64,000 nt of DNA from a virus: IMG/VR virus record IMGVR_UViG_3300047198_000026, positions 1 to 64,000 of that record. One strand, written 5' to 3'. Made by a program: the position numbers and the translations under genes. The notes below the pieces were generated by a model. The model ran no database searches. It was not told the origin of the DNA and saw only the letters and a program-made list of their open reading frames with translations. Below are positions 16,154-49,293 of the stretch, in pieces (the stretch's first letter is position 1; every line of letters begins with the position of its first letter).

Positions 16154-16168
16154 TTATGTCATATTGTT

Positions 16169-16699: not shown

Positions 16700-17025
16700 T
16701 TCTGATTTAGAAGCAACTTGTCTGAACTGGTAATGTCTTGATCAATCCAACAAGCTCCTATGTGCCTTACTTTCTGCCAAACTTCACTTTTGACAATGCC
16801 AAAGGGCAAGGTTTAAGGGTTAGTTAAAACATTTCAAGCACTTAGCCCTCCTGCCCGTATGACAATCGCCCATTGGCATGGCATATCGCCCAAGGGGGAG
16901 GGGGGGTCACCATACCAAAGATGTAGATGCCCCTGACCACTAAAAAACCCTCCACGGGGTCTGTGACCAAGGAGAATCTGTAAAATCGGCAAATCCCCAC
17001 CCTATAGCGAATTGACCCCTGCCAA

Positions 17026-17062
17026 CCGTCAGGATGCCAGTTTATATACCCATAGGGACTAT
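17026..17062. promoter_or_regulatory. Intergenic motif, copy 2
   Basis: Matches 3933..3969; lies in the divergence region between the arms. Confidence 0.55.
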
Positions 17063-17086
17063 ATAATAGTATGGAGGACAAATAAC

Positions 17087-17371
17087 ATGGACAAAAATGA
17101 CACAAAGCAGAGGACCCGTTACATAGGCCAAGTGGCCGAATGCATACTCTATGAGGATGCAATTAAGGCAACCAAGTATGTCAGCCCTTCTGAGACCATT
17201 AAGGCAACCCGGAGGGGAAGGAAGGATGGCAGAAGTAAGCACCAAGAGATGATCCTGACAGTTGGACCCCCCAACTATGCCGAAAGGGCGTTCATTAAGA
17301 TTGCCAGAAAGTCAGGAGAACCATTCCCCATTCAGAGGATACAGCTCAAGTGGAAGAAAAAAGACAAATGA
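17087..17371 (+). CDS. Basic hypothetical protein
   Basis: GGAGG RBS; first gene of the right arm. Confidence 0.7.
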   Translation: MDKNDTKQRTRYIGQVAECILYEDAIKATKYVSPSETIKATRRGRKDGRSKHQEMILTVGPPNYAERAFIKIARKSGEPFPIQRIQLKWKKKDK

Positions 17372-17482
17372 ACCCTGACGACCTGACCATTCTCAGTTAC
17401 TGTATCTCAATCTTCAATGCCCAGTATGTCTATGATGACGACATGGTCCAGAAGAGGATTGACGAGCTCAAGGAGTTCATCC

Positions 17483-32773: not shown

Positions 32774-33316
32774 ATGGATTTTGTATCAAGACGAAGGCAA
32801 TTACGAATTGTTATTAAACCCGCGGATAGGGTAATGGATGAGCAAAGAAGGGTCACCCAAATAAGAGGTGCAACGGCTGAATTTAGTAATAACAAATTTT
32901 CAACCGAAGACCCTTATATCATTGAAAAGCTTTTGACTCACGGGGAATATGGAGCCGAATTTACTTCCGTGCAGGATGGACCTGGCTGGTTGAAAGAGAT
33001 TGAGGCTAATCGTAAGTCAATTGTGGTCGTATCTGGAGCCAGATCAACGACTAATATAGCAGGGGGTCCTAGAGAGGAAGCCCCTTTGCCAACAAGGCCA
33101 ACTGAGGTAGTGGCTACATCTCCTGACCTTCAGACCATTATAAAGGATGAGATCGCCAAGGCTATGGCTCAGATTAGAGAGGAGCTCAAGCCAAAGGAGA
33201 AGAGGGTCTTCAAGTGCAAAAAGTGTGATGAAGTGTTTCCCTCAGGCTATGATGTTGGAGCCCATATGAAAATTGCCCACCCAAAACCCGCCGTCGCTGC
33301 AATACCTAAAGAGTGA
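32774..33316 (+). CDS. Hypothetical protein with C-terminal C2H2 Zn finger
   Basis: FKCKKCDEVF...HMKIAH. Confidence 0.7.
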   Translation: MDFVSRRRQLRIVIKPADRVMDEQRRVTQIRGATAEFSNNKFSTEDPYIIEKLLTHGEYGAEFTSVQDGPGWLKEIEANRKSIVVVSGARSTTNIAGGPREEAPLPTRPTEVVATSPDLQTIIKDEIAKAMAQIREELKPKEKRVFKCKKCDEVFPSGYDVGAHMKIAHPKPAVAAIPKE

Positions 33317-33765
33317 CATATAGAGCCCAATCCAACAGGTTGGGCTCTATCCTATCTAATATGAAAGAGAATAACCATAAAGAAGACAAACTCAGAGCAT
33401 CTAGAGTCTTTAGTAATAGGAATGAGTCAGCTGGGATGTGTCGTCAATGTGGAAAGCATCCTCCAAAAGTTGAACGAAAACTATGTGGGATTTGTATTCA
33501 GGGGGCAGTAGAGAGACACCGTTCAGCTCGTAGAAAGATTAAGCACCTAGCCATTGAATATTTGGGAGGATCCTGTTCTATTTGTGGTTTAAAAGACCCT
33601 GTTGAAGCCATCTATGATTTTCATCATAAAGACCCTAAGGTAAAAGATATTGGAATCTCGGTGATGAGATCGTGGACTTGGGAACGAGTAGTAATCGAAC
33701 TAGATAAGTGTATTTTAGTTTGTTCAAATTGTCATAGAAAAATACATTACACTCAGGAGTTGTGA
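33313..33765 (+). CDS. HNH endonuclease
   Basis: CSICG...YDFHH...KCILVCSNCHRKIH. Confidence 0.85.
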   Translation: MTYRAQSNRLGSILSNMKENNHKEDKLRASRVFSNRNESAGMCRQCGKHPPKVERKLCGICIQGAVERHRSARRKIKHLAIEYLGGSCSICGLKDPVEAIYDFHHKDPKVKDIGISVMRSWTWERVVIELDKCILVCSNCHRKIHYTQEL

Positions 33766-34748: not shown

Positions 34749-36749
34749 TTGGGAAATTTTGGTAACTATATTTACCGACCATCATTCGGAGCCTCGGGGA
34801 CATCTGAATACACCAACTTTGATACGGGATTGGCAAATGTAGACACAGAGGTTTCTTCAGGAGCTTATCATCGTCAGTTAACCACTAATGCTCATGGACT
34901 GACCTTTACTGGCCCAGGGGTAGGTGGGGGATTGGATGCTGATAAAGTAGATGGCTATCATGCTGCCTCCTTTTTGTTATCCGGGGGTATTGCAACTAGT
35001 GCTAGTGACTCTGCTAGGCTGGCAGGAGTCCTACCAGCAGGATATCTCTTGTCAGGAGGTACTTCTTTAAGTGCCTCTGACTCAGCCCGACTAGCAGGTA
35101 ACCTTTCGTCTGCTTTCCTTTTGTCAGGGGGGACAGCCTTAAGTGCCACTGACTCTTCTAGACTAGCTGGTAATCTTTCTACAGCTTTCTTAACAGTTGG
35201 TGGGTCAGCAGGTGACTCTGCCTTATTACAGGGAAACTTGGCGTCAGCCTTTCTGGGTGCCTCATCCAATGCTGTCAGTGCTAATGACTCTGCCAGACTG
35301 GCAGGTAACCTTTCGACAGCCTTCTTAGGAGCCAGTTCTAACGCAGTCAGTGCAAATGACTCTGTTAGACTTAATGGTAAACTTGATACGGCTTTCCTAG
35401 CCTATGATGCTAATGCAGTTAGTGCCAATGACTCCTCACGATTAGGGGGTAACCTACCTTCCGTATACACCAGGAAAGACGGCACAGTTGCCTTTACAGA
35501 CACGTTCTCTGGTACTAATGCCTATTTTACGGGAACGTTATCAGCCACTGCCTTATCAGCCGCTAACGTCTATACCACAGGCAACGTTGGCATAGGGACA
35601 GGGAGTCCTGCCCACACTCTAGATGTCAATGGCATTATGTCAGGTAGTACAGTCCTTGCTACTACCTTTTCAGGTACTAATGTCTATGCCACCACAATCA
35701 CGGCTAGTACAATGAGTGCCTCTGACTCTTTCCTCTTACTTGGTAAGACATTGGCAGAGGTAGTGGCCAGTGGGGGTGGTGCTGGAGACATGATGTCTGA
35801 TGGCACAGTTGCCTTCACAGACATGATGTCAGGTACCAGTGCTTACTTCTCTTCTTCCTTGTCTGCTTCGAAGTTTAGTGGGACGTCAACCAGTGCTGAC
35901 GATTCTACCTTACTATTTGGTAAGACATTGGCACAAGTAGTGGCCAGTGGGGGTGGGGGTTCAGGAGATGTTAAGTCTGATGGTACTGTTGCCTTTACTG
36001 ACATGCTGTCAGGTACTAGTGCCTACTTCTCGTCTTCAGTATCAGCTTCCAAGTTTAGTGGGACATCAACCAGTGCTGACGATTCCACCTTATTATTTGG
36101 AAAAACCTTGGCAGAGGTAGTGGCCAGTGGGGGTGGAGGAGCTGGAGATGTTAAGTCTGATGGTACTGTTGCCTTTACTGACATGCTGTCAGGTACCAGT
36201 GCTTACTTTTCGTCAACCATATCGGCAGCAGGGTTCTCTGGAACAGCAGCCAGTGCTTCTGACTCAGCCATGTTACAGGGGAATCTTGCGTCAGCATTCT
36301 TAGGAGCCAGTTCTACGGCTTTATCCGCCAATGATTCCACCCTATTATTTGGTAAAACATTGGCACAGGTAGTAGCCAGTGGTGCTGCATGTATAGTTTG
36401 GAGCGTCCCAGGAACTTTAGTTGCAAATGCAACAGTTTCAGTATGTTCTCAATTTTATATACCATTTGATTGTACTGCGGTAGGCGTGAATTTAATTGTT
36501 ACAACTACTCCAGGAACTAATGCAGACATAATAGATATCCATTATGGAGCAGCAGGAGGGATTGGAACAACTATTTTTAGTACGAAACCACAGATTAATG
36601 CTGGTGCATATACTGGTGGGGGTGCGGCAGCGTTTTCGGAAACGGCCCTTGCTGCAGGCAACATGTTAACAATGTTTATTGACCAAATCGGAGCAGCTGG
36701 AAATGAAGGAAAATTCCTTACTGTAGAGCTGAAAGTGAGCGTGCCATAA
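34749..36749 (+). CDS. Tail fibre/spike protein with internal repeats
   Basis: GLDADKVDG, GNVGIGT..P..TLDVNG; DSARLAG repeats and three about 60-aa repeats. Confidence 0.8.
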   Translation: MGNFGNYIYRPSFGASGTSEYTNFDTGLANVDTEVSSGAYHRQLTTNAHGLTFTGPGVGGGLDADKVDGYHAASFLLSGGIATSASDSARLAGVLPAGYLLSGGTSLSASDSARLAGNLSSAFLLSGGTALSATDSSRLAGNLSTAFLTVGGSAGDSALLQGNLASAFLGASSNAVSANDSARLAGNLSTAFLGASSNAVSANDSVRLNGKLDTAFLAYDANAVSANDSSRLGGNLPSVYTRKDGTVAFTDTFSGTNAYFTGTLSATALSAANVYTTGNVGIGTGSPAHTLDVNGIMSGSTVLATTFSGTNVYATTITASTMSASDSFLLLGKTLAEVVASGGGAGDMMSDGTVAFTDMMSGTSAYFSSSLSASKFSGTSTSADDSTLLFGKTLAQVVASGGGGSGDVKSDGTVAFTDMLSGTSAYFSSSVSASKFSGTSTSADDSTLLFGKTLAEVVASGGGGAGDVKSDGTVAFTDMLSGTSAYFSSTISAAGFSGTAASASDSAMLQGNLASAFLGASSTALSANDSTLLFGKTLAQVVASGAACIVWSVPGTLVANATVSVCSQFYIPFDCTAVGVNLIVTTTPGTNADIIDIHYGAAGGIGTTIFSTKPQINAGAYTGGGAAAFSETALAAGNMLTMFIDQIGAAGNEGKFLTVELKVSVP

Positions 36750-37042
36750 TGGGAATGCCAAGTTGTATATGCGACATGGCTGTAAATACTTGTTCATGTA
36801 ATGTGGCTGTATATGATTGTTCATGTAATCAGACTACATACGGCTCATGTATTTGTTATTCAACATGTGCAAGTGCATATCACACCTGCTACAAGGATTT
36901 CGAATGTGGTTGTTTTTGGTTTTGGTATAGTTGTAGTGTATGCTACAATACAGTTTATGGTTGTAGTGTATGCTACAATACAGTTTATGGTTGTAATTGT
37001 TATAATCTAAAATATGCTCCAGATGTTTGGTTGTTTTATTAG
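36749..37042 (+). CDS. Cys/Tyr-rich repeat peptide, putative radical-SAM substrate
   Basis: 18 Cys in 97 aa in CxC/CxxC-x4-Y units; TAATG overlap with the fibre gene. Confidence 0.75.
   Translation: MGMPSCICDMAVNTCSCNVAVYDCSCNQTTYGSCICYSTCASAYHTCYKDFECGCFWFWYSCSVCYNTVYGCSVCYNTVYGCNCYNLKYAPDVWLFY
36931..36990 (+). repeat. Perfect 30-bp tandem duplication (CSVCYNTVYG twice)
   Basis: TTGTAGTGTATGCTACAATACAGTTTATGG twice. Confidence 0.95.
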
Positions 37043-37051
37043 GAGATAAAT

Positions 37052-37720
37052 ATGTTGCAGGAAATTGAAATCAAAAGAATGTTACCAATGGGCGGAATTA
37101 CAATCGAGAATTTTGTTTACAAAGATGTAGCCGATACATCCGAAGAGACGAGGGCTGCATTTCAGAAAGAGGTGGGACAATGGAAAGAAGATAACAAAGA
37201 ATTATTAAATAAAGCTAGGGAGACTATGCAAACATATGCGACACCTCCACTTTTATGGGCAGCTGCTGTTTACATATTTTTAAGAGAAGAACTTGTCGGC
37301 ATAATATTTTTTGATAAATGGGAAACTCATTTGGAAAATGAGATAACAATGAAATTCCATCCGTCAATTAAATTTAGAGCAACCTTTGATTATGCGTTGT
37401 CTGAAGCTTTATTTAGAGATTACATTTTTGAAAATAATTTAATGAATACTATTTATGCTATCCTTCCGTTATGGAGAAAGGGGAATTCTTTTGAATTTCC
37501 ATGTGCTAAGTCTACAGCACCCTGGACAACTGGTAATCCCTATGATTATTCAACCACTAAAATACTTTCAGAAGATATTAAAAATAACGGAATCATGATT
37601 GAAATACATCAGTCTAAGAAGGATTGGTTTCCTGGAAAGTTTGCACAATTAACCAGGAAAACTTGGCAAATTCCGACAAGCGAGCATACAATCGAATTAC
37701 CAAAGGAGGTAAAGAAATGA
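37052..37720 (+). CDS. rSAM partner protein 1 (possible GNAT-like fold)
   Basis: Paralog of 42158..42874; ATGA-coupled to rSAM A1. Confidence 0.65.
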   Translation: MLQEIEIKRMLPMGGITIENFVYKDVADTSEETRAAFQKEVGQWKEDNKELLNKARETMQTYATPPLLWAAAVYIFLREELVGIIFFDKWETHLENEITMKFHPSIKFRATFDYALSEALFRDYIFENNLMNTIYAILPLWRKGNSFEFPCAKSTAPWTTGNPYDYSTTKILSEDIKNNGIMIEIHQSKKDWFPGKFAQLTRKTWQIPTSEHTIELPKEVKK

Positions 37721-38787
37721 GCAGTTATGCATTGATCTGTCACATTTTTATGACCTATGGATGTAACCGTAATTGTGAAGGGTGTTATACTAATCTGCAG
37801 GCAGATAGAAATTTGAAAATGTCAATAAAGACAGCTGATGATGTGGCGAAATGGCTCGTAAACTTAGCCAAAGTAGAGGAAGCAGAATTGTTTTCATTTC
37901 CGATACTTGGTGGGGAACCTTTAATGAATGCTGATGTGCTGTTTCATCTGATAGCGACTTTGCAAAGAGATTTACCAAAACATCTGAAAAATGTCCGAGC
38001 AAGGACAGGGGCGTCGGGAGTCAATGTAAAGAATGAGGATCGTCTCTTTATTCTATTTACTAACGGAGATTATTTGACGGAAGAAAATCTTAGAAGAATA
38101 GAAGCCCATAGATTGTTGGCCTACATTAATCCTACAGATGATAATCTCATCAGTGTGGAAGAGAAGGTTAAGAAATTGAAAGCAGTATGCGGGCATTGCA
38201 ATTTAGCAATTACACTGAATAAAAAGAATATGCCAAGGCTACCAGAGTTGGTTGATATTGCTATTAGAAATGGTGGAGTAACACGGATCAGTCGGATGTA
38301 TGATGGTGGTAGAGACCCAAATTACGTAAAGGAATATGGAAGACAGATGCACAAGGTATTTGATATGCTATTAGCTGCTCCAGTTCCCATGCATCCAAAT
38401 TGGATAGTTGAGAGCACCTGGGTGACCTGGGACAAACCATCAAATCCAAATGGTTGCGGAAAATGGTCTATTCATATGGGCCCAGACGGAGTAATCCGAA
38501 GTTGTAATGCTGATTACAGTACTAAGATTGGTTCAATCTACACTCATTCCAGATTGTCTGATTTTAAGTTTACTCATAGATGGAGTGCAAAGAATTTACC
38601 TGAGTGTCAAGGCTGTGAATTTATAACCTTTTGTCAAGGTGGTTGTCCTTATAGTCGTAAGTTGACTTACGGAACTTACGACAAGAGAACTCCATTTTGT
38701 GAGGAGCTGAAAACTCTTTACCCAAGGGTGCTTGAATTGGCTAAAAAATGGAAAGAATACCAAGAACGTATAATGAAAGGAGAATAA
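37717..38787 (+). CDS. Radical SAM/SPASM protein, class A copy 1
   Basis: CNRNCEGC, GGEP, TNG; SPASM CG...G.IRSC...CQGC...CQGGCP...C. Confidence 0.92.
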   Translation: MSSYALICHIFMTYGCNRNCEGCYTNLQADRNLKMSIKTADDVAKWLVNLAKVEEAELFSFPILGGEPLMNADVLFHLIATLQRDLPKHLKNVRARTGASGVNVKNEDRLFILFTNGDYLTEENLRRIEAHRLLAYINPTDDNLISVEEKVKKLKAVCGHCNLAITLNKKNMPRLPELVDIAIRNGGVTRISRMYDGGRDPNYVKEYGRQMHKVFDMLLAAPVPMHPNWIVESTWVTWDKPSNPNGCGKWSIHMGPDGVIRSCNADYSTKIGSIYTHSRLSDFKFTHRWSAKNLPECQGCEFITFCQGGCPYSRKLTYGTYDKRTPFCEELKTLYPRVLELAKKWKEYQERIMKGE

Positions 38788-38789
38788 AT

Positions 38790-39965
38790 ATGTTAGTTTC
38801 CAATGCGTCATTAAACTTGACTCAAGAATGTAATTTAAGATGTGAATATTGTTTTACGTATGGGCACACATCTAAACGGATGAGTTGGGCTGTCGCAAAA
38901 AAGAGCGTAGATTTTCTTTTCAATAATGCTAAACGTACAAAAGAAAATAAAATGGTTAGAATAGATTTTTGGGGAGGGGAGCCACTATTAGAATGGAATT
39001 TGTTGAAGAAGATAACTTTGTATGCAGAAAGTGTATCGAAAAGAACCACCATTCCTGTGCATTTTGGTGGAACGACCAATGGTACACTCCTAACTGAAGA
39101 GAAATTTACATTTTTGGGAAAACATGGTATTAAGTTTTTGGTATCTCTTGATGGCACGGCAGAAAGTCACAATAAATATAGGGTATTTAGATCTGGTAGG
39201 GGGTCTCACGCTCTAATAGTAAAAAATATGAAGAAGGTTTTGAAGAAATGGCCTGATTATGCTGTAAGATTATCCCCTTATCCAGAAAGTATTAAACGAT
39301 TTTATAACGACATTAAATTCTTAATAGATCTGGGTTTTAGGAATGTAATGTATAGTCCTGTATTTGAGGCAAACTGGAAAGAGAAAGATTGGAATAAATG
39401 GGAAGATGAAGGTTATAAAGTAGTGGATTTATTATCCGAAAAGAAGAGAGAAGGGATCAATATTTTTATTCATCAGTTTGATGAATTTTGTGGTCAGGAG
39501 TTGGATCAAAAATACCCTTGTGGAGCGGGGAGGCATTATATTGGGATTGACATAGATGGAGGAATATATCCTTGTCATCGATTTTGTAAATTTGATGGAA
39601 AATCTTGGAAAGAAAAGGAAACTTGTATCGGTCATGTAGACTTGGGTATCATTAATCTTGAATTTATAGATAGGTTTATTAATTTTAAAACCTGTGAAGG
39701 ATGCGAGTTTGCTAACACTACTCCTTGCTGTGGTGGTTGCCCAGCGACTAATTATGATCTCACAGGAGATATAAATACACCCACAGATAAGAATTGTAGA
39801 TGGATTAAGGTACAAACCAAAATTTCCAGATACATGATGGAGAAAGAAAATCTGAAAAGAACAACCCCACAAGCGGTTATGGATTTATTAAGACGGCTTG
39901 AAATGCGGGTGGAGCAAATAGAAAAATATATCGAGGATAAAAACAATTTATCCACGGTTACTTGA
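38790..39965 (+). CDS. Radical SAM/SPASM protein, class B copy 1
   Basis: CNLRCEYC, FWGGEPLL, TTNGTLL, VSLDG, PCGAG...IYPCH...CEGC...CCGGCP. Confidence 0.93.
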   Translation: MLVSNASLNLTQECNLRCEYCFTYGHTSKRMSWAVAKKSVDFLFNNAKRTKENKMVRIDFWGGEPLLEWNLLKKITLYAESVSKRTTIPVHFGGTTNGTLLTEEKFTFLGKHGIKFLVSLDGTAESHNKYRVFRSGRGSHALIVKNMKKVLKKWPDYAVRLSPYPESIKRFYNDIKFLIDLGFRNVMYSPVFEANWKEKDWNKWEDEGYKVVDLLSEKKREGINIFIHQFDEFCGQELDQKYPCGAGRHYIGIDIDGGIYPCHRFCKFDGKSWKEKETCIGHVDLGIINLEFIDRFINFKTCEGCEFANTTPCCGGCPATNYDLTGDINTPTDKNCRWIKVQTKISRYMMEKENLKRTTPQAVMDLLRRLEMRVEQIEKYIEDKNNLSTVT

Positions 39966-40008
39966 GCTTGCTGAAAAGTGGAAGAGATATCAGGAGCATA
40001 TGTTGTAA
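39937..40008 (+). pseudogene. Relic 3' end of another class A rSAM gene
   Basis: The +1 frame reads IKTIYPRLLELAEKWKRYQEHML*, matching LKTLYPRVLELAKKWKEYQERIM of 37717..38787. Confidence 0.8.
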
Positions 40009-40079
40009 GGAGTCATGAAACGGTAGAATTTATTCCTCCAGATGGGAGCTTTTTCAATTATTTTAATTAGAGAGGGAAT

Positions 40080-41330
40080 ATGACTGAATTTCCAATTACC
40101 AGATGTAGTATTAATTTGACTAGGGCCTGCAATCTTAAGTGTGCCTTTTGCTTTACCTACGGATGCCGTCCTGGCAGAATGGGATGGGAAACGGCCAAGA
40201 GATCGGTCGACTTCCTATTTCACAATGCCGAGAAGGCCACCATCCAAGAAGGAAAGACTGTTGAGATAGGATTTTGGGGAGGGGAGCCACTATTAGAATG
40301 GGAATTATTGAAGAGGATAACCCTGTATGCGAAGAAGACGAAACCCCCATCAGTGAATCTGATGTTTGGTGGAACGACCAATGGTACACTCCTGACCCCT
40401 GACAAATTTGCCTTCCTGGATGAACACAAGATATTCTTTATGGTCAGTATAGACGGGCAAGAGAAGAGCCACAACCTATACCGTAAGTTCCATGATGGAA
40501 GGGGTTCACATTCAGTGGTAATGAAGAACCTGGAGTCCATCCTAAAGAAATGGCCTTTCTATAGAGCCCGGTTGTCTCCCAGTGTGGAAACAGTCCCTGA
40601 CTTCTTTGAGAATATGAAATACCTCTTTGACTTTGGATTCGAATATGTTATGTTCTCTCCTGTCTATGAAGGCAATTGGACTCCTGAGGTGTGGAAGACA
40701 TATGAGGACCAATGTAAGTTGGTAGTGGATTACATGGTGTCAGAGAAGGCCAAGGGAAGGAATTTGAAAGTAGAACACTTCGAATCCTATAAGGGTTCTG
40801 ACAATTCTAAATGGCCATGTGGGGCTGGAAGGTTCTATGCGGGAATAGACATTGATGGGGCCATCTATCCTTGCCACAGATTTAACAAGTTTAATGACAT
40901 GCGACCATGGACTGAAAAGGAAGTTTGTATTGGACATGTGGATGTTGGAATCACCAAACCAGACTTTAGAAAGTTATTCACCACAGACTGGAAGCCTGAA
41001 TGTGGAGAGTGTCCAAGACTTAAGGACACACCTTGTCATGGGGGATGTTACGCAGTGAACTTCGACTTTACAGGAAAGATTAATACACCCCATCTAGGAC
41101 TTTGTTCCTATGTTGAGATGCAAAGAAATGTCTCAAAATACTTGGAAGAGAAACTTCCTTCCCCACCCCAACAGGGAACAAGGGGTTGTATTTGTTATAA
41201 TATGTGTTACGCTGAGGGAACAGACCAAGAGATTACTCATAGGGACAAATCGAATGATATGACGTGCGTGTGCTATAACGCCCAATATAATGGGCCTTTG
41301 GATGAGAAAATTGCTAGGAGGCTTATATAA
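40080..41330 (+). CDS. Radical SAM/SPASM protein, class B copy 2, with Cys-rich C-terminal extension
   Basis: CNLKCAFC, FWGGEPLL, PCGAG, IYPCH, CGEC...CHGGC; tail CICYNMCY...CVCYNAQY. Confidence 0.93.
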   Translation: MTEFPITRCSINLTRACNLKCAFCFTYGCRPGRMGWETAKRSVDFLFHNAEKATIQEGKTVEIGFWGGEPLLEWELLKRITLYAKKTKPPSVNLMFGGTTNGTLLTPDKFAFLDEHKIFFMVSIDGQEKSHNLYRKFHDGRGSHSVVMKNLESILKKWPFYRARLSPSVETVPDFFENMKYLFDFGFEYVMFSPVYEGNWTPEVWKTYEDQCKLVVDYMVSEKAKGRNLKVEHFESYKGSDNSKWPCGAGRFYAGIDIDGAIYPCHRFNKFNDMRPWTEKEVCIGHVDVGITKPDFRKLFTTDWKPECGECPRLKDTPCHGGCYAVNFDFTGKINTPHLGLCSYVEMQRNVSKYLEEKLPSPPQQGTRGCICYNMCYAEGTDQEITHRDKSNDMTCVCYNAQYNGPLDEKIARRLI

Positions 41331-42137
41331 GTGATAGCCATTCTTATTCAAAAAGAGCCCTATCCTATCCATGAGGGCCATAAGGCCGTAATCAACTATG
41401 CCCGGTCTTTGGGTGATCCGATAGTTATTATGCCCCCTCACGCAGGTATGTGGCATAAATACCTAAAAGGGGGAATAGAGGAAGTAGGAGAAGAGAATAT
41501 TGATGTTAGGATAAACTCTATAAAAGAATTAGGTATTCCAGTTGAGCGAATGCGCCCTGTCTCGGTTCACAAGGATATAAGACAAAAGGCATTAGATTTT
41601 GCCTCTGCCTTTATGGAACCTTATAAAGACACATTAATTTTAGACAGGTATATTCAAGTGGCAACCTTGCTTGTGGCAGGGACACACCTAAGACGTAAGA
41701 TATGGAAAGACCAGATGTTGAAGTCCAAAATCCCCATTGAAGCCGCGGCTAGGGGTCCGTCAGTGATATCCTTCTTTCTTGCCCAAGTAAATCCCAAGTT
41801 GGGTAGGCCCCCTTGTTATGTGTACCCTAAAATAGTTAAAGACCCTCGTACAGGAATTCAATTCCAGAGTTCTATAAATCAGATTTTGGGTTCACACAGG
41901 CCAGCCTTAGAAAGACTTCCCATGGTGCTTGGAGAATTTAAGGATAGGTTGAAAGTGGGAAGAAATTTAGAATTAGAGAAGGAGATTAATGGATCTTACT
42001 ACTATACTCCCTGGAAAATCCAGGAGATTGCTGTGTTTGAAGGGGGTATGGTTCCTGGAAGATTAGAAGTTGTATCCTTTAGGTTTCCCTGTTTAAGAGG
42101 GAGTATACTAATTGAGGTAACTGAGTATTATCAGTAA
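41331..42137 (+). CDS. HxGH nucleotidyltransferase-superfamily protein, pantothenate-synthetase-like
   Basis: IHEGH near the N-terminus; IVKDPRTGIQFQSS resembles PanC IVRExDGLAxSSRN. Confidence 0.55.
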   Translation: MIAILIQKEPYPIHEGHKAVINYARSLGDPIVIMPPHAGMWHKYLKGGIEEVGEENIDVRINSIKELGIPVERMRPVSVHKDIRQKALDFASAFMEPYKDTLILDRYIQVATLLVAGTHLRRKIWKDQMLKSKIPIEAAARGPSVISFFLAQVNPKLGRPPCYVYPKIVKDPRTGIQFQSSINQILGSHRPALERLPMVLGEFKDRLKVGRNLELEKEINGSYYYTPWKIQEIAVFEGGMVPGRLEVVSFRFPCLRGSILIEVTEYYQ

Positions 42138-42157
42138 CAGGATGGAGGAACTAAGAG

Positions 42158-42874
42158 ATGTTTCAGTTAAAGGGTTGTTCAAGGTTAATACCTAGGGGAG
42201 GAGTTGTCATTCGTGGGATGTCCTATATAGACGTCAATGATGTCCTTCTTGAAGACAGGATGGCAACTAAGAAGTTTTTCGCTGAAGATTATGAGTACGG
42301 TGAGGCCGTTAGGAGAGGGTTAGCTCATTATAGAACTATGGAAATAGGTAGGCAATTTATTGTTTACGTTTATAAAAATCTGGACCTTCTAGGATGCCTC
42401 CTAAGTTTTGAACTACTTAATAACATGGATGGATATGGTAAGGGAGACTTTAATCATTCCCAATTAATCTATCCTAAATACAGGCATACCCAATTTTCTA
42501 GGTACTCATCACTAAACTTTAGGCACATGATGTTCCGGTCTGGAGTAGCCAATAAAATATATGTCTATGCTCCCTCTTCTAGATCAAAATCGCATTCCTT
42601 TCTAGATGCGATGGATGTGTCTAAAATGCCTTGTGCATCAGGATTACCATTTGAATTTATTGATATCCGATTTTCGGAGCACATCTCAGTTTCAAAAAGA
42701 TTACATCTTGAGGGAGTCCCTTTTCTTATTCTGGAATTTGATGGTGAGAAATATAGGAAGCTGACTTTAGATGATTTTGCAGAGAGTGTCCCCAATAAGG
42801 GTAAGGAACTTGTAGCCCAGTGGTTATCTGAGGCCGACCATGCGTCTGAATTGGTCAGAGGAGAGGTAAAATGA
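42158..42874 (+). CDS. rSAM partner protein 2 (possible GNAT-like fold)
   Basis: Paralog of 37052..37720; IYPKYRHT resembles GNAT motif A; ATGA-coupled to rSAM A2. Confidence 0.65.
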   Translation: MFQLKGCSRLIPRGGVVIRGMSYIDVNDVLLEDRMATKKFFAEDYEYGEAVRRGLAHYRTMEIGRQFIVYVYKNLDLLGCLLSFELLNNMDGYGKGDFNHSQLIYPKYRHTQFSRYSSLNFRHMMFRSGVANKIYVYAPSSRSKSHSFLDAMDVSKMPCASGLPFEFIDIRFSEHISVSKRLHLEGVPFLILEFDGEKYRKLTLDDFAESVPNKGKELVAQWLSEADHASELVRGEVK

Positions 42875-43905
42875 TGCCTGCGTTGATGCTATATATAAAT
42901 ATCTCTAATGCTTGTAATCGGCAGTGTGATCATTGCTATTCCTCCAATACTGGTGAGAAGATGAGTAAAGAAACAGTTGGGGAAGTGGTTAAGTGGGCTA
43001 AAGGTATTTGCGAGGAGGAGAAAGTTAAATATCTCAAATTAATTTTCTTAGGAGGGGAACCTCTAAATAATATAGATAACCTTTTGCTGATGGTTGACTT
43101 ATTCAATAAGCACCTTCCTCAGCTTCAAGATCCTTTTTGGGATACTAAGTATATGTTGTCCACGAATGGTGATTTGATCACTGATTCTATTCTAAGAGAA
43201 CTGAAGAGCAGGAGAATTTGGGTATCGCTGAATCCGTCAAACAGTAGTATGGGAGACCTTGAAGATAAGATATTAAAGGTTAAAGAAGTGAATGGAGGGT
43301 GTGCATTACTTACGGTGTTAAACGACGCGAATTTGCCAAGAGCCGTGGATCTGGCTAAATTGGCAGTTAGGCATGCCTGTTTTATTAGAATGAATAGGAT
43401 GTTTCAAGGGTCATCAGATCCAGAATACATTAGAGAGTACGGTAGTCAATTGGGCAAAATGATGGACATCTTCCTTGCTGCCAAGAGGGTAGCCTGGCCT
43501 AACTGGATGGTAGATTCTACTATGCCTGTAAGGTTTGCTGACATTTATTCCCAGACAACCAGAAATTGTTATTCTTGTGGTGAGTGGCTCTTTACCATCG
43601 ATTGGGATGGGATGATAAGAAGTTGTAACGCTGATCCTGATACGGTTATTGGGTATATTAGAACTCACAAGCATAGGAAGGATTTTAAATTCCCCCATAG
43701 GTGGAGTGCTGCAAATCTTCCAGAGTGTCAAGGCTGTAAGTGGATTGTTTTGTGTCAGGGTGGATGCCCTTACTGTAGAAAAGTAGCGTATGGTACGTAC
43801 GACAAGAAAACTCCATTTTGTGAGGTGCACAGGGATATCTGGCCTAAACTTATGGAACTTACGGAGAGATGGAAATTAAGTCATAGTGGGTTGTTTACAC
43901 GATGA
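42871..43905 (+). CDS. Radical SAM/SPASM protein, class A copy 2
   Basis: CNRQCDHC, GGEP; HRWSA.NLPECQGC...CQGGCPY shared with A1. Confidence 0.92.
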   Translation: MMPALMLYINISNACNRQCDHCYSSNTGEKMSKETVGEVVKWAKGICEEEKVKYLKLIFLGGEPLNNIDNLLLMVDLFNKHLPQLQDPFWDTKYMLSTNGDLITDSILRELKSRRIWVSLNPSNSSMGDLEDKILKVKEVNGGCALLTVLNDANLPRAVDLAKLAVRHACFIRMNRMFQGSSDPEYIREYGSQLGKMMDIFLAAKRVAWPNWMVDSTMPVRFADIYSQTTRNCYSCGEWLFTIDWDGMIRSCNADPDTVIGYIRTHKHRKDFKFPHRWSAANLPECQGCKWIVLCQGGCPYCRKVAYGTYDKKTPFCEVHRDIWPKLMELTERWKLSHSGLFTR

Positions 43906-43915
43906 GAGGAAAAAT

Positions 43916-44335
43916 ATGGACAATAAATATGTAGCAGGCTTGTTTGATGGAGAAGGGTACATAACAATATCTAGGTATAAAAGACCAGAAACCGGTACCA
44001 TGCACTATAGTCCTCAAATTGGAATATCAATGTGTTGGAAACCAACTCTAGAAGAGATGAAAGAACAGTTTGGTGGGTCTCTTCGTAAGCACAAGTTGTT
44101 GAAAGGGAAGACGATCTGGAGATGGGTAATCTATAATGGACAGGCCAAGAACTTTTTAGAAGTCATCCTACCTGAACTAAGGGAAAAGAGGTCTCAGGCA
44201 GTTCTAATTATGGATTATTATATAAATCTTGAATCTAGGGGTAAGTCTAAAATTCGGTTATCCGAGTCTGAAGTTGGAACTAGAGAGAAGTACTATCGCG
44301 ATCTCAAAGGTCTAAAGAAAATGGAGTGGGTGTAA
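43916..44335 (+). CDS. LAGLIDADG homing endonuclease (free-standing)
   Basis: YVAGLFDGEGYI...FGG...WRW...ILPELREKRSQA. Confidence 0.85.
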   Translation: MDNKYVAGLFDGEGYITISRYKRPETGTMHYSPQIGISMCWKPTLEEMKEQFGGSLRKHKLLKGKTIWRWVIYNGQAKNFLEVILPELREKRSQAVLIMDYYINLESRGKSKIRLSESEVGTREKYYRDLKGLKKMEWV

Positions 44336-45057
44336 TGTCCTGGCAGAAGGCATGGCCAAAGGTCTGGGCAGCGGCTGCCACATGTGCTGTTGATGTAGTT
44401 AGTGGAAGCACAGAGCAGATACGGGCCAACTGGAAAGCAATAGAAGACTGGACTAAGAAGGGTCACTATAATATGGACAACGTGACCAGCGCTGGAGCCC
44501 ACGTATTGGGACAAGTAGGAACTCTGGCAGTGTCCTCTACCTCTCAAATTGCTACCATATCAGCCCCGGGAACGGGAGCATGGGCTTGGGATACAACGAA
44601 AGGGGAATTACAGATTCTAACGTCAGGAGGAGTTTGGGAAAGTGCCACCGCTTCAGCCTTCTCAAGAGTGAGAAAAGTCCATACGGGGATTTCAATACCA
44701 GATTCAATTTGGACATCAGTACCTTGGTATGACTCTACTGCTCAAAGAACCTACGACGGACTATCCGAATTTGGAAGTTATACAGTATTTACTGCAATTA
44801 ACGCTGGTTACTATTTAGTTCGAGCATCTGCCCACTGGGCTGCTGCTACAACCGATTACCAAAAAGCTATTGGGATTTTTAATGGTGCCTATGCTACTGC
44901 AATAGGAAGACGGTTTAGTAGGTGGAAGAGGACCACTTCGGTAGTTGATGTTGTTCAGATGGCTGTAGGTGACCAACTCTCAATAAAGTGTTGGCAAAAT
45001 AGTGGGGTAGCCTCTAGTATTGATGAGGCTAAATTGAGCATCACGAGGTTGAGTTAA
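44335..45057 (+). CDS. Virion appendage protein with C1q-like C-terminal domain (paralog 1)
   Basis: ANWKAIEDW...H...H; FTAINAGYYLV...VQMAVGDQLSI. Confidence 0.65.
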   Translation: MSWQKAWPKVWAAAATCAVDVVSGSTEQIRANWKAIEDWTKKGHYNMDNVTSAGAHVLGQVGTLAVSSTSQIATISAPGTGAWAWDTTKGELQILTSGGVWESATASAFSRVRKVHTGISIPDSIWTSVPWYDSTAQRTYDGLSEFGSYTVFTAINAGYYLVRASAHWAAATTDYQKAIGIFNGAYATAIGRRFSRWKRTTSVVDVVQMAVGDQLSIKCWQNSGVASSIDEAKLSITRLS

Positions 45058-45058
45058 A

Positions 45059-45775
45059 ATGAGCTGGGACGCAAGTGTACCTATTAGTGGAACACGAATT
45101 GTTGATATCCCTACTGTACATGGAGCTAATTGGACTGCCATTTCAGACACTTGGGGATTGGAGCATCAAGTATGGTCAGTGGTTGCATCAGGACGACATA
45201 AGCCAGGAATATCTGGGTTAGTTGGTTCTATAGCATCTTCGGCATTACCCCTAACTGCTGAGGAAGGATGTGTGGTTCTTGATGATGCCTCCTCTGGAGT
45301 GGGATGGGTTTATTCTGGGGGCAAATGGCAAATGCCCTCCTCAGGATTTGCCACCGTTCGTGTACATGTTTATAGAGGAACTAACCAGACCATATCCGCG
45401 GGAACTACTGCCACAGTGGGATTTTCCACCTCAGGAGTGGACAGTATGGCATCATTTAATACTACAACGTTTACCTTTACATCTCCCGCAGACGGCTACT
45501 ATCTAGTGAATCCCGTAATCAGTCTCACTCCAGATGTGGCAAACAAAGCAGTTTACCTTCAGGTTCAACATCTGGATTCTCTAGGTACTATTCGGTATAC
45601 AGTAACAGAGAGCAAAGGGACTTTGTCCACAGATGAATTCAGCATGGAGGTTTCACCCGTTCTTTATCTATCAGCAGGAGATTTGATTAAGATAACATTC
45701 TATCATAATTCAACGTCAATGGCCATTCAGGGAGGAGCAGAACGCACCTTCCTTGATATTTACCGTATGTCATAA
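45059..45775 (+). CDS. Virion appendage protein with C1q-like domain (paralog 2)
   Basis: ANWTAISDTW..EH...SGRH; FTSPADGYYLV...LYLSAGDLIKI. Confidence 0.7.
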   Translation: MSWDASVPISGTRIVDIPTVHGANWTAISDTWGLEHQVWSVVASGRHKPGISGLVGSIASSALPLTAEEGCVVLDDASSGVGWVYSGGKWQMPSSGFATVRVHVYRGTNQTISAGTTATVGFSTSGVDSMASFNTTTFTFTSPADGYYLVNPVISLTPDVANKAVYLQVQHLDSLGTIRYTVTESKGTLSTDEFSMEVSPVLYLSAGDLIKITFYHNSTSMAIQGGAERTFLDIYRMS

Positions 45776-45784
45776 GGAGTGTAA

Positions 45785-47650
45785 ATGTCCTTATTTAGAA
45801 CAGGATATCCGTCATCTATCCACAAAATATATGAAATTCCTGGTGTAACCCAAGAAAACTTTGATGCTATAGAAGACTGGTCTGGTATTGAGCATTCAAG
45901 TTTGACCTCTGCTTCTTCTGGGCAACATGTGGCTGGGGGAGCAGGAGTCGTTTATGTGGGTAAAACACTGGACATTTCTGAATTATCTCCGGCCTCTGGG
46001 GCTATGGTTAGGAATCGTCAGACGGGTACCTTTGGGAAATACGACGGATTAGACTTCTATGGGATATGGGCAAATAAGTACTCTCGGGCTCGGGCCACCT
46101 TGTCAGGGGCGGTATTTCCCCTAACGGCAGACTGGCAAGGTAGGTTTGACTGTAACCAGATTTTGTGGGACTCCTTACATGAATTTCACATTGATCCAGC
46201 GGACGCATTATCTGGATCATTTACTCCCTGTGCCGATGGGTTCTATCATGTTATTGCTAGTTTTGCCATCTCAGCAGCTAATACACAAGTAACAACTAAC
46301 ACATCACGACCCTCTGGAAATGGAACTGTACAGTGGATTCCCAGTGGATATGGGGTAGGTTATAATTATAAGAACGTGTGGGAATATCCTAGTGTTAGCG
46401 ACGAAATGCACTATTTTAATGAGTCAGCAACATCTGGAGTATATGATTCCTTTAATCTATCTCCCGCAGCCACTGGAGGACCTGCAGGATCTTCTTCTGT
46501 TGTTATAGGAGCAACTTGGAGAGTTCGGCTTCGGAATGGAAGTTGTGCTTGTAATAATACGTGTTACCATGATATTACCACCTGCACTTGTAATAATTCC
46601 TGCTATGAAGATACGGCCTGCACCTCCTGTGATATGACATGTTACCAACAGGGAAGTTGCACATGTAATAACTCGTGCTATGGTCAGGCTGGATGTACCT
46701 GTAATAACACCTGTTATAGCCAAACGTGCACGACCTGTAATGCCACCTGTTATAGTCAAACGTGCACATGTAATTATACCTTATATGGACCTCATTGTAA
46801 CACATGCTACATTACGTGCTATTGGTTTGCTTGGTGCAAAGGTGATCAGAGCTGCACCTGTAATAATACCTGTTATGGGGGATTCACCTGCACCTGTAAT
46901 AATTCATGCTATGGACAATCCTGTACCTGTAATAGCACTTGTTATCAACAGCAATGTGCCTCTTGTTATAATACTTGTTATGGGTATAGTGGATCTTGCA
47001 CCTGTAATAGTTCGTGTTATGGACAAGGCTCTTGCACTTGTAATAATTCTTGCTATGGTGATACCCCTTGTTCCTGTGATGTAACCACCTACGGGTATTC
47101 TCATTCGTGTGAATGTGATGCGTCTCAGTATCTAGGAGTTTTCCAAATTGCTCCTGAGATATATGATTCCGCTTTAGGTTGGGCAAGGGGGACACTAACA
47201 TCCATAGCTGGAACAGCATATGGAGAATATACATATGTATGGGACACTGACCCTTTTAGAACCGCCGACTGGACAGCTGAGACTGCCTCAGGAATTACAA
47301 GTATAGCATATCGCCTGTTTACTCCCTACACGGCTGCCTGTGGAGTGTCGGCTGATGTGAGCCAATTTTATTTAAGCCAATCTTGGTTTCCTGTAAGACC
47401 CGTGTTGCGTTTGCAGATAGTAACGAATGAAGCAAATGCGTCCTCTTCGGTGGTGGCCCAGACTCAAGAGACCATTGCAGAAGCAGGGGCAGAAAGTTAT
47501 CAAACTGTCTCTCTATCCACTATAGTTCCTCTCAAAGGCGGAGACAGGCTTAGTTTTAAGGTTAGGAAAACCCGAATTGATGATATGAGTACAAATAATT
47601 ATGCCTATTCCTTTGTGAGTGTGCATCGGTTAGGGGGTCAGTGGATTTAA
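45785..47650 (+). CDS. Virion appendage protein with C1q-like domain interrupted by a Cys-rich repeat insert (paralog 3)
   Basis: ENFDAIEDW..IEH...SGQH; FTPCADGFYHV...[insert]...VPLKGGDRLSF. Confidence 0.75.
   Translation: MSLFRTGYPSSIHKIYEIPGVTQENFDAIEDWSGIEHSSLTSASSGQHVAGGAGVVYVGKTLDISELSPASGAMVRNRQTGTFGKYDGLDFYGIWANKYSRARATLSGAVFPLTADWQGRFDCNQILWDSLHEFHIDPADALSGSFTPCADGFYHVIASFAISAANTQVTTNTSRPSGNGTVQWIPSGYGVGYNYKNVWEYPSVSDEMHYFNESATSGVYDSFNLSPAATGGPAGSSSVVIGATWRVRLRNGSCACNNTCYHDITTCTCNNSCYEDTACTSCDMTCYQQGSCTCNNSCYGQAGCTCNNTCYSQTCTTCNATCYSQTCTCNYTLYGPHCNTCYITCYWFAWCKGDQSCTCNNTCYGGFTCTCNNSCYGQSCTCNSTCYQQQCASCYNTCYGYSGSCTCNSSCYGQGSCTCNNSCYGDTPCSCDVTTYGYSHSCECDASQYLGVFQIAPEIYDSALGWARGTLTSIAGTAYGEYTYVWDTDPFRTADWTAETASGITSIAYRLFTPYTAACGVSADVSQFYLSQSWFPVRPVLRLQIVTNEANASSSVVAQTQETIAEAGAESYQTVSLSTIVPLKGGDRLSFKVRKTRIDDMSTNNYAYSFVSVHRLGGQWI
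46544..47131 (+). repeat. 16 degenerate C-x(1,2)-C-x3-[C/x]-Y repeats (46 Cys in 196 aa)
   Basis: Manual count; consensus CTCNNSCY. Confidence 0.95.
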
Positions 47651-49293
47651 TGACTACTTCTAATATTCTAAGTCAATTAGGACAAGTTCTCTCCCAAGCA
47701 GGGGCTTCACAGAATGCCCCCTTAATTATAGACAAATTTAATATAGGGTTGGTGGATGAGGAAGTCCTTTCGAAGTACCAATACAGTCCACAGGCCTGTG
47801 TTGATTGTCAGGATGTAGAGTTATTTCCTAGGGGTACTCTTAGTAGAAGGAAGGGTTTTGATAAATTAAATTCAGCTCCTTGGTATAATGCACCCATCAA
47901 TAAAATATTTCAATGGCAGACTATAGATGGAGTAAGCCTATTCCTTGCCTTTTGTCCAGCATCAGGGTCCACTAGCGCGGATATCGGCTCAATTACGATT
48001 ACAGGCTCTTTTGTCCTTACTCCGATATTATCTGTGTCTTCTGCGTCTGCAAGTTGGGATCCAGAATGGACGGATGTAATTTCAGTAACAGCCTATTCGG
48101 GCTCTGCTGTATTTGTTTATCCAAATACTGAGGTGCCATACGCTTGGAGTGGGCAGGCTGGTTCATTGGTTGAATCCTTATCGGCCTCTTCTCCAAGTGG
48201 AGCAAAATATTGTGCGAGTTATGGAAATCACCTTTTATTAGCTAATGTTTTAGATGTTAACGGAACTCGTCGGGGATCTAGAGTGGTGTGGTGTTATCCG
48301 GGCAATCCCGGTTATTGGCCTGCTACCTACTATCTAGATTTTGATGCCGATGATGGAGACGAGATAACCTCAATTTCATCTTTGGGTAACTTGGTAGTCG
48401 TACAGAAAGAGACAAAGACTTTTGTAATGCACTACACTGGTGATGTGGACATATTTAAAGGGGAAAGGATATCAACATCTACTGGGTGTGTGGCCCATAA
48501 TTCTGCAAGAGAATTTAAAGGGGTATTATACTTCTTGGCAGTGGACGGAGTTTATAAATTTGATGGTGTTTCCCCTCCAGTAGAATTGTCAGGAAACATT
48601 AGAAACCACTTTAAGCAGTTGAACAATCAATACCGGCATATGAGCCAGACGACTGTTTTTCCTGATAAGGACCAGGTTTGGGTGTCTGTTCCCTATGGAT
48701 CCTCTATATTTCTAAATAGGATCTACGTTCTAGATTTTGTACAATCGGCCTGGACTAAGTTTAACATCTCCTGTGCATCCTTGAGCCTTATTCGATATGG
48801 AGCCAACTTGGCTTATGAAAACTTTCCCTTGGATTATGGAAACTATGACTTAAAGATAGGAGACGCATATGGGGCTCGATCGGAGATCATTGTTACTGGA
48901 ACCTATGACGGATTTATCAATAGGTATGGATTATTTAATACGGATAATGGAGTCCCTGTCATAGCCTATTGGACTAGCTGCTGGCTAGATTTTGGGATGC
49001 CCAACTACAATAAGAGAGTTGTCAGGGGGACTGTCTGGTTAGAGAAGGAAGGAGATTATGACCTATCTGTTTTTGTCTTTGCTGACTGGGACGATGTCAC
49101 TCCTATTAAGACATTTACTGTATCTCTGTCAAGTACTGTTCCAACTATCGAGAAAAGACTTGACTTCACTAGGAACTTACGATCCTTTCAATTTACTGTC
49201 ACTACTTCTGGGGCTACGGCCTCTGGATCTCCTTTTAGGATTCATAAGATGGCTTGGGATTGGGTACCCAAGGGGAGGACTCAGGTCAAATGA
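47641..49293 (+). CDS. Tail nozzle / DNA-stabilisation protein (tubular protein B or P22 gp10-like)
   Basis: 550 aa beta-rich; GTLSRRKG, GCVAHNS, LYFLAVDGVY; precedes the ejection proteins. Confidence 0.75.
   Translation: MDLMTTSNILSQLGQVLSQAGASQNAPLIIDKFNIGLVDEEVLSKYQYSPQACVDCQDVELFPRGTLSRRKGFDKLNSAPWYNAPINKIFQWQTIDGVSLFLAFCPASGSTSADIGSITITGSFVLTPILSVSSASASWDPEWTDVISVTAYSGSAVFVYPNTEVPYAWSGQAGSLVESLSASSPSGAKYCASYGNHLLLANVLDVNGTRRGSRVVWCYPGNPGYWPATYYLDFDADDGDEITSISSLGNLVVVQKETKTFVMHYTGDVDIFKGERISTSTGCVAHNSAREFKGVLYFLAVDGVYKFDGVSPPVELSGNIRNHFKQLNNQYRHMSQTTVFPDKDQVWVSVPYGSSIFLNRIYVLDFVQSAWTKFNISCASLSLIRYGANLAYENFPLDYGNYDLKIGDAYGARSEIIVTGTYDGFINRYGLFNTDNGVPVIAYWTSCWLDFGMPNYNKRVVRGTVWLEKEGDYDLSVFVFADWDDVTPIKTFTVSLSSTVPTIEKRLDFTRNLRSFQFTVTTSGATASGSPFRIHKMAWDWVPKGRTQVK

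Follow-up and report, generated by a model that had tools for sequence, protein, structure and literature searches.

Enzymes that install thioether cross-links are known to act on small peptides and, since 2026, also on one archaeal protein. In Methanococcus voltae the radical S-adenosylmethionine (SAM) enzyme CrpC (family TIGR04463), a SPASM-domain enzyme, installs ranthionines on the Cys-repeat protein CrpA (28.8 kDa, ten 17-residue repeats), which is encoded beside CrpC with no protease or exporter (Dieter et al. 2026; PMC13692751). We describe here a cassette with four radical SAM/SPASM enzymes, Cys-repeat proteins and accessory genes in virus record IMGVR_UViG_3300047198_000026 (102.6 kb; completeness ∼50% by CheckV), of which we analyzed the first 64 kb (positions 1–64 000, the window). 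CrpC/CrpA is its closest experimental precedent, as in both cases a SPASM enzyme adjoins a whole Cys-repeat protein. The best explanation of the locus as a whole, to which we would give a probability of roughly 0.6, is a phage-encoded maturation system for tail proteins, in which the enzymes would staple a Cys-rich ladder by thioether links.

The terminase large subunit, a portal or adaptor protein and the major head protein are encoded upstream of the cassette and more virion structural proteins (PHROG matches) downstream; thus the cassette lies within the structural module of a tailed phage. A model had earlier annotated the window from its letters and open reading frames (ORFs). All genes listed in this sequence-only reading were recovered on the + strand where it had placed them (Table 1), and its interpretation stood in part: the association of enzymes with repeats, the tail targets and the two enzyme sets held, while several labels had to be refined or corrected.

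The four enzymes are of two types, A (paralogues A1 and A2, 40% identity) and B (paralogues B1 and B2, 51% identity). All four match Radical_SAM PF04055 (33.8–59.1 bits, cut-off 29.5), have CX3CX2C at residues 15–28 and carry a seven-Cys SPASM arrangement, C-x(10-13)-G-x4-C and C-x2-C-x(5-8)-C-x3-C with one more Cys. All auxiliary-cluster cysteines are present, and inspection of the motifs bore out the earlier assignment of CxxxCxxC and SPASM cysteines to every one of the enzymes. With the SPASM model TIGR04085, A1 scores 41.6 bits and A2 35.3 bits, both above the 27-bit cut-off.

The best NCBIfam models for the B enzymes are the PapB, SCIFF, CcpM, CXXX-repeat, nif11 and QhpD maturases, with every score below the curated cut-off: PapB NF047865 (B1 251.8 and B2 232.6 bits, cut-off 340; A1/A2 44–61 bits), SCIFF maturase TIGR03974 (183 and 143 bits, cut-off 425), CXXX-repeat maturase TIGR04115 (175 and 152 bits, cut-off 350) and QhpD-type TIGR03906 (154 and 138 bits, cut-off 453). 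The CrpC family model TIGR04463 gives 67.6 bits for B1, 34.7 for A1 and 43.8 for A2 against a cut-off of 525. A profile of 26 B family members aligns with CteB (5wgg) at E-value 3.5e-52; the alignment begins at CteB residue 96 and runs through the SPASM domain, so the N-terminal recognition element (RRE) that precursor peptides bind in enzymes of peptides synthesized ribosomally and modified post-translationally (RiPPs) is missing from B.

The ranthipeptide maturases CteB (of SCIFF) and PapB (of freyrasin) are thus the best sequence relatives of B, with which they share the three-cluster architecture and Cys-rich substrates of repeated motifs. The B enzymes differ from them in having no N-terminal RRE, in scores below the curated cut-offs and in a tail with substrate-like units and a predicted coiled-coil-like part, and the phage substrates would be leaderless proteins of up to ∼1000 aa. 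The phage system also differs from CrpC/CrpA. CrpC has an RRE and CrpA a leader-like N-terminus, while the phage system has neither; the CrpA repeat is C-X-X-Q/D, the phage repeat CxC[ND]xxC[YH]GY; and the phage system has tail proteins as likely targets and a second enzyme type, with a GNAT-like partner and a gene with an HxGH motif. No PqqD/RRE domain (PF05402) was matched in the whole 102.6-kb record and no peptidase or transporter in the block (Pfam, NCBIfam and PHROG scans), in accord with the earlier statement that transporter, leader peptidase and PqqD/RRE genes are absent. The features by which RiPP clusters are usually recognized are therefore lacking: there is no RRE or PqqD, the repeat proteins are leaderless, and the block has no protease or exporter.

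At least two units of the repeat occur in only three genes of the record, those for a stand-alone 97-aa protein, a 621-aa tail protein and enzyme B2 (in its C-terminal tail); three other matches to a loose pattern are Fe–S cluster motifs of B1 and A2. The common repeat grammar that had been read in peptide, virion insert and B2 tail is therefore confined to these genes. Across 575 units in 54 non-identical proteins the unit reads C1-[ST]2-C3-[ND]4-x5-[TSA]6-C7-[YH]8-G9-[YQ]10, with Asn/Asp4 at 83%, Cys7 at 78%, Tyr/His8 at 80% and a period of 11–12 residues; the target, CxC[ND]xxC[YH], is not a plain CXXX repeat. In the stand-alone proteins the repeats start at residue 3–6, with no leader, and the proteins end with KYAPxVWxF, with SWIGWE or RWFGDD, or with YxYPW. 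The KYAP-type ending of the 97-aa protein is also found in L008, L014, L035, L093, L098 and L104 (L numbers denote the loci compared), where it adjoins B enzymes.

The 97-aa protein has 18 Cys in six units, and its gene contains a perfect 30-bp tandem duplication at 36930/36960 (36930–36989) coding two identical units, so the number of units is apparently still changing. In the 621-aa protein there are exactly 16 units, the number counted before, arranged as 8 + 8 around WFAWCKGDQS, and 46 of its 49 Cys fall within residues 250–450 (DNA 46541–47131). A turn of type CK[GST]D..C divides the units of relatives in the same manner (4/4, 3/3, 6/6, 11/10 and 2/3 before/after). Such equal or nearly equal counts suggest that the two arms pair, which fits an insert having to return to its host domain; judging from this symmetry, the units should double back on themselves and form a long ladder with two arms that stands out from the tail protein.

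The tail of B2 has two units of the same grammar, CICYNMCY and CVCYNAQY (DNA 41187–41288). The likeness to peptide and insert seen earlier thus extends further, as it is a conserved family feature rather than a peculiarity of B2: at least one unit is present in the tail of 81 of the 97 B-family proteins with tails of 45 residues or more (84%), and two units, 25–26 residues apart, in 58 of the 97. Their consensus is C-[IV]-C-[YN]-N-[ML]-C-Y followed by C-x-C-[YN]-x-[TA]-x-Y, and by sequence the tail looks like a one-rung copy of the ladder. After the units many B members have a predicted helical segment of the type ITPQQVMDLL..L..RV; the B1 tail has no units and keeps the helical segment. We suppose that the tail may dock on the substrate or fill the active site as a built-in mimic.

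To see whether enzymes and repeats belong together we compared loci fetched by alignment-based scans (19 viral, 79 metagenome and 6 genome loci); 85 non-redundant B-type loci were sampled from viral and metagenome contigs. A scan of viral contigs with the single B1 sequence had given no match. Eighty non-redundant loci had a B homologue at 30% identity or more, and 45 of them held a Cys-repeat ORF on the same strand; in 30 of these 45 it was <700 nt from B, and in 27 of these 30 upstream of it. Among non-identical ORFs of at least 80 aa in the fetched loci, 54 of 881 on the + strand carried repeats and none of 503 on the opposite strand. Many loci scored as having no repeat ORF are short contigs, and most loci with usable flank hold a same-strand repeat-unit protein beside the B enzyme. 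Furthermore, six loci with this score (L009, L010, L019, L044, L045 and L048) have a four-unit (2 + 2) insert or N-terminal units in a J-like central tail fibre, which in most of them adjoins B. The J-like scaffold was typed on L044 and L009 (PF13550, E-value 1.9e-12 in both; phrog_31, 1e-49 and 4e-40, respectively), and L010, L019, L045 and L048 share the C-terminal region of the typed fibres.

Thus the unit is found in three scaffolds, the TNF/C1q-like tail family, J-like central tail fibres and stand-alone repeat proteins, which argues for a portable module travelling with its enzyme. From these comparative loci and scaffolds we infer that the enzymes work on the Cys-repeat proteins and that the latter are tail components, as the sequence-only reading had supposed. 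The B family itself is essentially viral. It makes up ∼90 database clusters at >40% identity, nearly all metagenomic; the GenBank phage collection has only distant relatives (at most 32% identity), and among cellular genomes (one genome for each of 185 579 prokaryote species) there were only six matches, all on contigs of metagenome-assembled genomes.

One could propose instead that the small repeat proteins serve as precursors from which a RiPP-like peptide, such as a bacteriocin or host-directed factor, is released, and that their place in the tail module is incidental. Many stand-alone proteins of 85–330 aa do consist almost wholly of repeats, and the enzymes are of the RiPP-maturase kind. 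We consider this very improbable, given that leader, RRE, peptidase and transporter are missing, PqqD is absent from the record and the enzymes begin at the radical SAM core; that the same units occur inside J-like tail fibres and TNF-like tail proteins; that the genes lie between the fibre gene and virion structural genes; and that certain repeat proteins are of great length, as much as 1065 aa. A role of the radical SAM enzymes outside protein maturation (viperin-like or nucleotide chemistry) was rejected, as viperin models score far below those of peptide maturases and the occurrence of the repeat proteins is tightly linked to that of the enzymes.

The genes of the window form two sets, peptide–partner1–A1–B1 and B2–HxGH–partner2–A2. 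Relatives have these sets apart. In L008 the order is KYAP-ending repeat peptide, an unassigned ORF, A-like enzyme, B and three paralogues, resembling set 1. Synteny is seen for L006, L012 and L013, whose genes for head, portal and adaptor proteins are 45–65% identical and which have the order B–HxGH–partner–A–paralogue a–paralogue b–Cys paralogue–structural protein, resembling set 2; their orthologues of the third tail paralogue carry the insert at the same nested position, with 27, 87 and 27 Cys, respectively. Therefore the window combines two sets, each of which goes with its own substrate type in relatives, as expected from the earlier proposal of two enzyme sets for two substrates. Set 1 would serve the stand-alone 97-aa protein at the fibre, and set 2 the insert of the 621-aa tail protein. 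Just upstream of B2, across the end of B1 and in another frame, lies a fossil of the C-terminus of an A-type enzyme; its translation up to the stop, KTIYPRLLELAEKWKRYQEHML, resembles the end of A1, KTLYPRVLELAKKWKEYQERIMKGE. Together with a G+C content of 0.37–0.39 at 36–40 kb (against ∼0.44) this suggests that set 1 came by recombination and points to replacement or insertion of a cassette.

In one record, L114, which is a complete 37.7-kb phage, the order is fibre, 48-Cys repeat protein, partner and A, with no B anywhere. Such a B-free phage indicates that A and its partner are an independent team for the same type of substrate; judging from gene content, the two would be sufficient in at least one complete phage genome. 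The partner sits immediately 5′ of A in every locus seen. The AlphaFold2 model of partner2 (predicted local distance difference test score, pLDDT, 83.6; predicted template modelling score 0.84) matches GNAT acetyltransferases in every leading Foldseek match, at E-values of 9e-6 and below, and in a structural alignment (VIA) reaches Z 12.1 with 162 residues aligned at a root-mean-square deviation of 3.2 Å; on this model the partner is a GNAT-fold protein. By sequence neither partner1 nor partner2 has a Pfam match (one relative reaches Acetyltransf_3 at E-value 0.009, below the cut-off), and the partner profile has no match in the PDB. The family counts 62 representatives in an exhaustive search of 1.84 billion proteins; a word-index search with the partner alignment gave two proteins. 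Prediction of a complex of A2 with partner2 gave a score of 0.01, which, with controls not run, weighs neither way. An ORF of 206 aa between peptide and A in L008 was considered as a partner homologue and rejected, as no kinship was detectable.

The gene following B2 had been called an HxGH ligase. The HEGH gene is there, and H-x-G-H is invariant in its family; the ligase label rests on weak matches to HIGH-motif nucleotidyltransferases, namely TIGR00125 (E-value 0.0024, below the cut-off) and, for the profile against the PDB, phosphopantetheine adenylyltransferase 3do8 (8.5e-4) and PanC (0.3). An atlas of viral clusters gave CTP_transf_like/Citrate_ly_lig at a score of 0.87, which is a lead only. 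Orthologues follow B in L006, L010, L012, L013, L035, L044–L048, L051, L074 and L084. A fused relative of 614 aa (P0124) was tried as a partner–HxGH fusion and discarded, since its N-terminal part carries no HxGH.

The accessory genes could also stand outside the radical chemistry, with HxGH and the GNAT-like partner making or transferring a nucleotide-activated sugar or polyol as a decoration of the tail protein, in company with a large glycan-biosynthesis island further downstream. This would agree with the cytidylyltransferase-like lead for HxGH, with PseH, a sugar N-acetyltransferase, which ties with others as the partner's best fold match, and with the glycosyltransferases, PseC-like aminotransferase, acetyltransferase and further radical SAM genes encoded at 64–80 kb of the record. 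However, all loci seen show translational coupling of the partner with A, the complete 37.7-kb phage has it with only the repeat protein and A, and its fold matches are generic across GNATs. We therefore think such a decoration route quite unlikely.

Turning to the reaction of the maturation system, two further enzymes are informative. In the streptococcal system NxxcB/NxxcA of radical SAM RiPPs (RaS-RiPPs), NxxcB joins Cys to an upstream Asn of NxxC by a beta-thioether, with Asp tolerated (PMC9389541). The phage unit has a matching [ND]-x-x-C (83% and 78% for its two ends); this is a resemblance of motif only, the enzymes being likened by substrate motif alone, and the substrate of NxxcB, unlike the phage repeats, is a short peptide under quorum regulation that receives a single link. 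QhpD is reported to install several Cys–Asp/Glu thioethers in the QhpC subunit of quinohaemoprotein amine dehydrogenase (cited in PMC13692751). QhpD/QhpC is like the phage system in having a SPASM enzyme and a modified protein that stays part of a larger assembly; it differs by an RRE and leader, by three links rather than tens and by being a cellular system rather than one of a virion.

With thioether formers as nearest relatives of B, an [ND]xxC motif like that of NxxcB and the precedent of CrpC, a thioether is favoured for B; by analogy, the enzymes would most likely cross-link a two-armed Cys ladder, borne by tail proteins, through thioethers. B would bind the Cys thiol of a unit at an auxiliary Fe–S cluster and then abstract hydrogen from a neighbouring side chain, giving a thioether (ranthionine) link at that Cys. 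The conserved Asn/Asp of [ND]-x-x-C would be the best candidate acceptor, by comparison with NxxcB and PapB; the acceptors of PapB and QhpD are Asp or Glu. Repeated unit by unit, this reaction would leave the ladder stapled by covalent links in the cytoplasm, a place where disulfides are unreliable. The A enzymes with the GNAT-like partner, often with HxGH, would act on the same repeats by a second chemistry.

It is also conceivable that the enzymes act on the Cys repeats by a main reaction other than thioether formation, the ladder being held by disulfides or metal ions. Candidates are conversion of Cys to formylglycine (anSME-like), Tyr-centred C–C or C–O cross-links (cyclophane, dynobactin-like), epimerization, or an acyl-derived modification by A and GNAT. 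The A enzymes leave room for this: their scores on the DynA, PapB, YhhB and anSME models are low and almost tied, and the A profile, which begins at the radical SAM core, matches in the PDB CteB at 3e-15 and anSME at 1e-10. In the unit, Tyr/His at position 8 and the following Gly-Tyr are as conserved as Asn/Asp; the complete B-free phage has only A and GNAT beside its 48-Cys protein; and CxC-rich repeats are reminiscent of metal-binding or disulfide-ladder proteins. Still, B is clearly nearest to thioether formers (CteB at 3.5e-52, PapB at 252 bits), three conserved Cys per unit exceed the need of a Tyr-centred reaction, and CrpC makes thioethers on a Cys-repeat protein (PMC13692751). On balance we hold a non-thioether main reaction to be unlikely.

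Several observations weigh against the thioether-ladder system that we prefer. The B scores lie under every curated cut-off, and B may accordingly carry out another reaction than its nearest relatives. No repeat protein was found despite good flank in L007, L005/L033 and L016, so that the expected neighbourhood of SPASM and Cys-repeat genes, seen in the 45 loci, has exceptions. In L109 (a 101.8-kb record, 53% complete, with the order HxGH–partner–A–A′) the A/GNAT/HxGH set is without a repeat protein in the recovered part. By inspection, the partner family is without the canonical acyl-CoA loop Q/R-x-x-G-x-G/A and reads PKYRxTKYSRY there. The AlphaFold2 model of the 621-aa protein has a mean pLDDT of 58, with short strands through the repeats at 65–77; it gave no Foldseek match at E-value ≤0.001, and the repeat region takes no recognized fold in this low-confidence model, so the ladder architecture is drawn from symmetry in the sequence. 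The location in the virion is deduced from homology and gene position, and after lysis the repeats could be held by disulfides or metals.

A fuller version of the maturation reading has three parts. Tailed phages of anoxic sediments would build a new tail rod, a two-armed ladder of up to ∼150 Cys; its rungs would be covalent links installed by radical SAM enzymes, with B docking on the substrate or priming it via its own one-rung tail in place of an RRE; and A, GNAT and the HIGH-motif protein would add an acyl- or nucleotide-dependent radical modification. For the last part the A–GNAT team may be likened to Elp3, a radical SAM enzyme plus GNAT, and the team with HxGH to citrate lyase ligase, GNAT plus nucleotidyltransferase with thiol acylation. 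Taken jointly the three parts are tentative, and we doubt somewhat that all of them will hold. If they did, they would amount to a new principle of virion maturation and a new mode of recognition for RiPP-type enzymes.

The chemistry would be related to ranthionine-type maturation already known at the protein level; the phage virion as its target is the new aspect. In full-text literature searches aimed at phage systems we found no account in which radical SAM enzymes mature the structural proteins of a phage, which agrees with the earlier remark that no such phage system is described. Covalent cross-links that toughen a virus particle are familiar from the capsid chainmail of HK97 type. The isopeptide bonds of HK97 are autocatalytic and belong to the capsid, while the present system would use dedicated radical enzymes on tail or receptor-binding proteins. 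If true, host-recognition apparatus would be stapled covalently by enzymes encoded in a conserved portable module, and this would explain the stability of the appendage in reducing habitats where disulfides are unreliable. The range from 27 to 87 Cys between orthologues suggests an appendage of tunable length. RiPP enzymology would gain a natural example of enzymes with a substrate-like tail that recognize very long repeat substrates without an RRE, and the 97-aa protein, the 196-aa insert and four enzymes make small, defined material for tests.

Table 1. Features of the cassette and its flanks (window coordinates)
Feature	Coordinates	Strand	Remarks
Tail-fibre-like protein, 666 aa, internal repeats	34749..36749	+	Stop overlaps start of Cys-repeat peptide
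Stand-alone Cys-repeat protein, 97 aa	36749..37042	+	Candidate substrate, set 1; ends KYAPDVWLFY
partner1, divergent paralogue of partner2	37052..37720	+	26% identity, E-value 2e-12; aligns with the family
A1, radical SAM/SPASM, short form, without RRE	37717..38787	+	Radical_SAM, Fer4_12, SPASM TIGR04085
B1, radical SAM/SPASM, CteB/PapB-like, without RRE	38748..39965	+	No Cys units in tail
Fossil of A-type enzyme C-terminus	39937..40008	+	Other frame, across B1 end, just upstream of B2
B2, radical SAM/SPASM	40080..41330	+	Two substrate-like units in C-terminal tail
HxGH (HIGH-motif) nucleotidyltransferase-like protein	41331..42137	+	HEGH at residues 14–17; conserved C-terminal extension
partner2, predicted GNAT-fold protein	42158..42874	+	Stop overlaps A2 start (42871)
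A2, radical SAM/SPASM	42871..43905	+	SPASM TIGR04085
LAGLIDADG homing endonuclease, mobile insert	43886..44335	+	LAGLIDADG_1 PF00961, E-value 1.1e-4, 23.5 bits (cut-off 23.1)
Two paralogous TNF/C1q-like tail proteins	44326–45057, 45059–45775	+	Without Cys repeats
Third tail paralogue, 621 aa, nested Cys insert	45785..47650	+	Candidate substrate, set 2
Virion structural protein, closes conserved block	47641..49293	+	phrog_3287, E-value 3.4e-31

The true start of B1 is likely the ATG at 38790, directly past the A1 stop. The tail-fibre-like protein has no Pfam or PHROG match and is locally 45–51% identical to the fibre genes preceding the cassette in L006 and L114. Alignment shows the three downstream tail proteins to be paralogues, as the earlier annotation had it; its label for them, C1q-like, is weak, resting on a sub-threshold match to BclA_C (E-value 0.0049) and on local Foldseek matches of the jelly-roll part of the 621-aa model to TL1A/TNF (E-value ∼7e-3, probability 1.0, in the model of mean pLDDT 58). 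The two without Cys repeats match phrog_13989, a virion structural protein (1.3e-8), and weakly tail-fibre and minor-tail PHROGs. The structural protein that closes the block is syntenic in L006, L007, L012 and L013. The homing endonuclease previously placed between A2 and the tail paralogues is upheld by a domain match just over the cut-off; it is absent at the corresponding place in L006, L012 and L013 and is a mobile insert outside the chemistry.

Some further observations concern the relatives. The L006 orthologue of the 621-aa protein (16147–18168 of that locus) contains an additional ∼200 residues that the others lack; by eye this insertion is of discoidin-type carbohydrate-binding kind, which, if so, would fit a receptor-binding role. 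In L013 (3343–6551) and L012 (4587–7131) LAGLIDADG-like ORFs lie where the gene for the major head protein is split or extended, as if by introns or inteins. The B-family genes of L014, L017, L061, L063, L089, L097 and L099 include many of 550–950 aa, enlarged by big internal insertions, and the B-family protein P0029 has the intein Pfam domain PF14890; inteins seem to settle frequently in the maturase gene. In a more distant viral locus, L023 (13421–14296), three to four radical SAM genes precede the gene for a 291-aa protein whose 59 Cys lie in a different and very regular repeat, CTCNCNY, which suggests that further repeat grammars are served by related enzymes.

In the record itself, two small genes stand between the head and tail genes (32774–33765), one with a C2H2 zinc finger (PF13912, E-value 1.4e-5) and the second with a Cys/His-rich C-terminal part that is HNH-like by eye. 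Past the window, the region at 64–80 kb is a ∼16-kb island of sugar/glycan biosynthesis with GT4 and rhamnosyl-type glycosyltransferases, a PseC-like aminotransferase (E-value 3e-84), a hexapeptide acetyltransferase, an ATP-grasp protein and a methyltransferase; it also has three further radical SAM genes, two of them of the B12-binding type, bringing the total for the record to seven.

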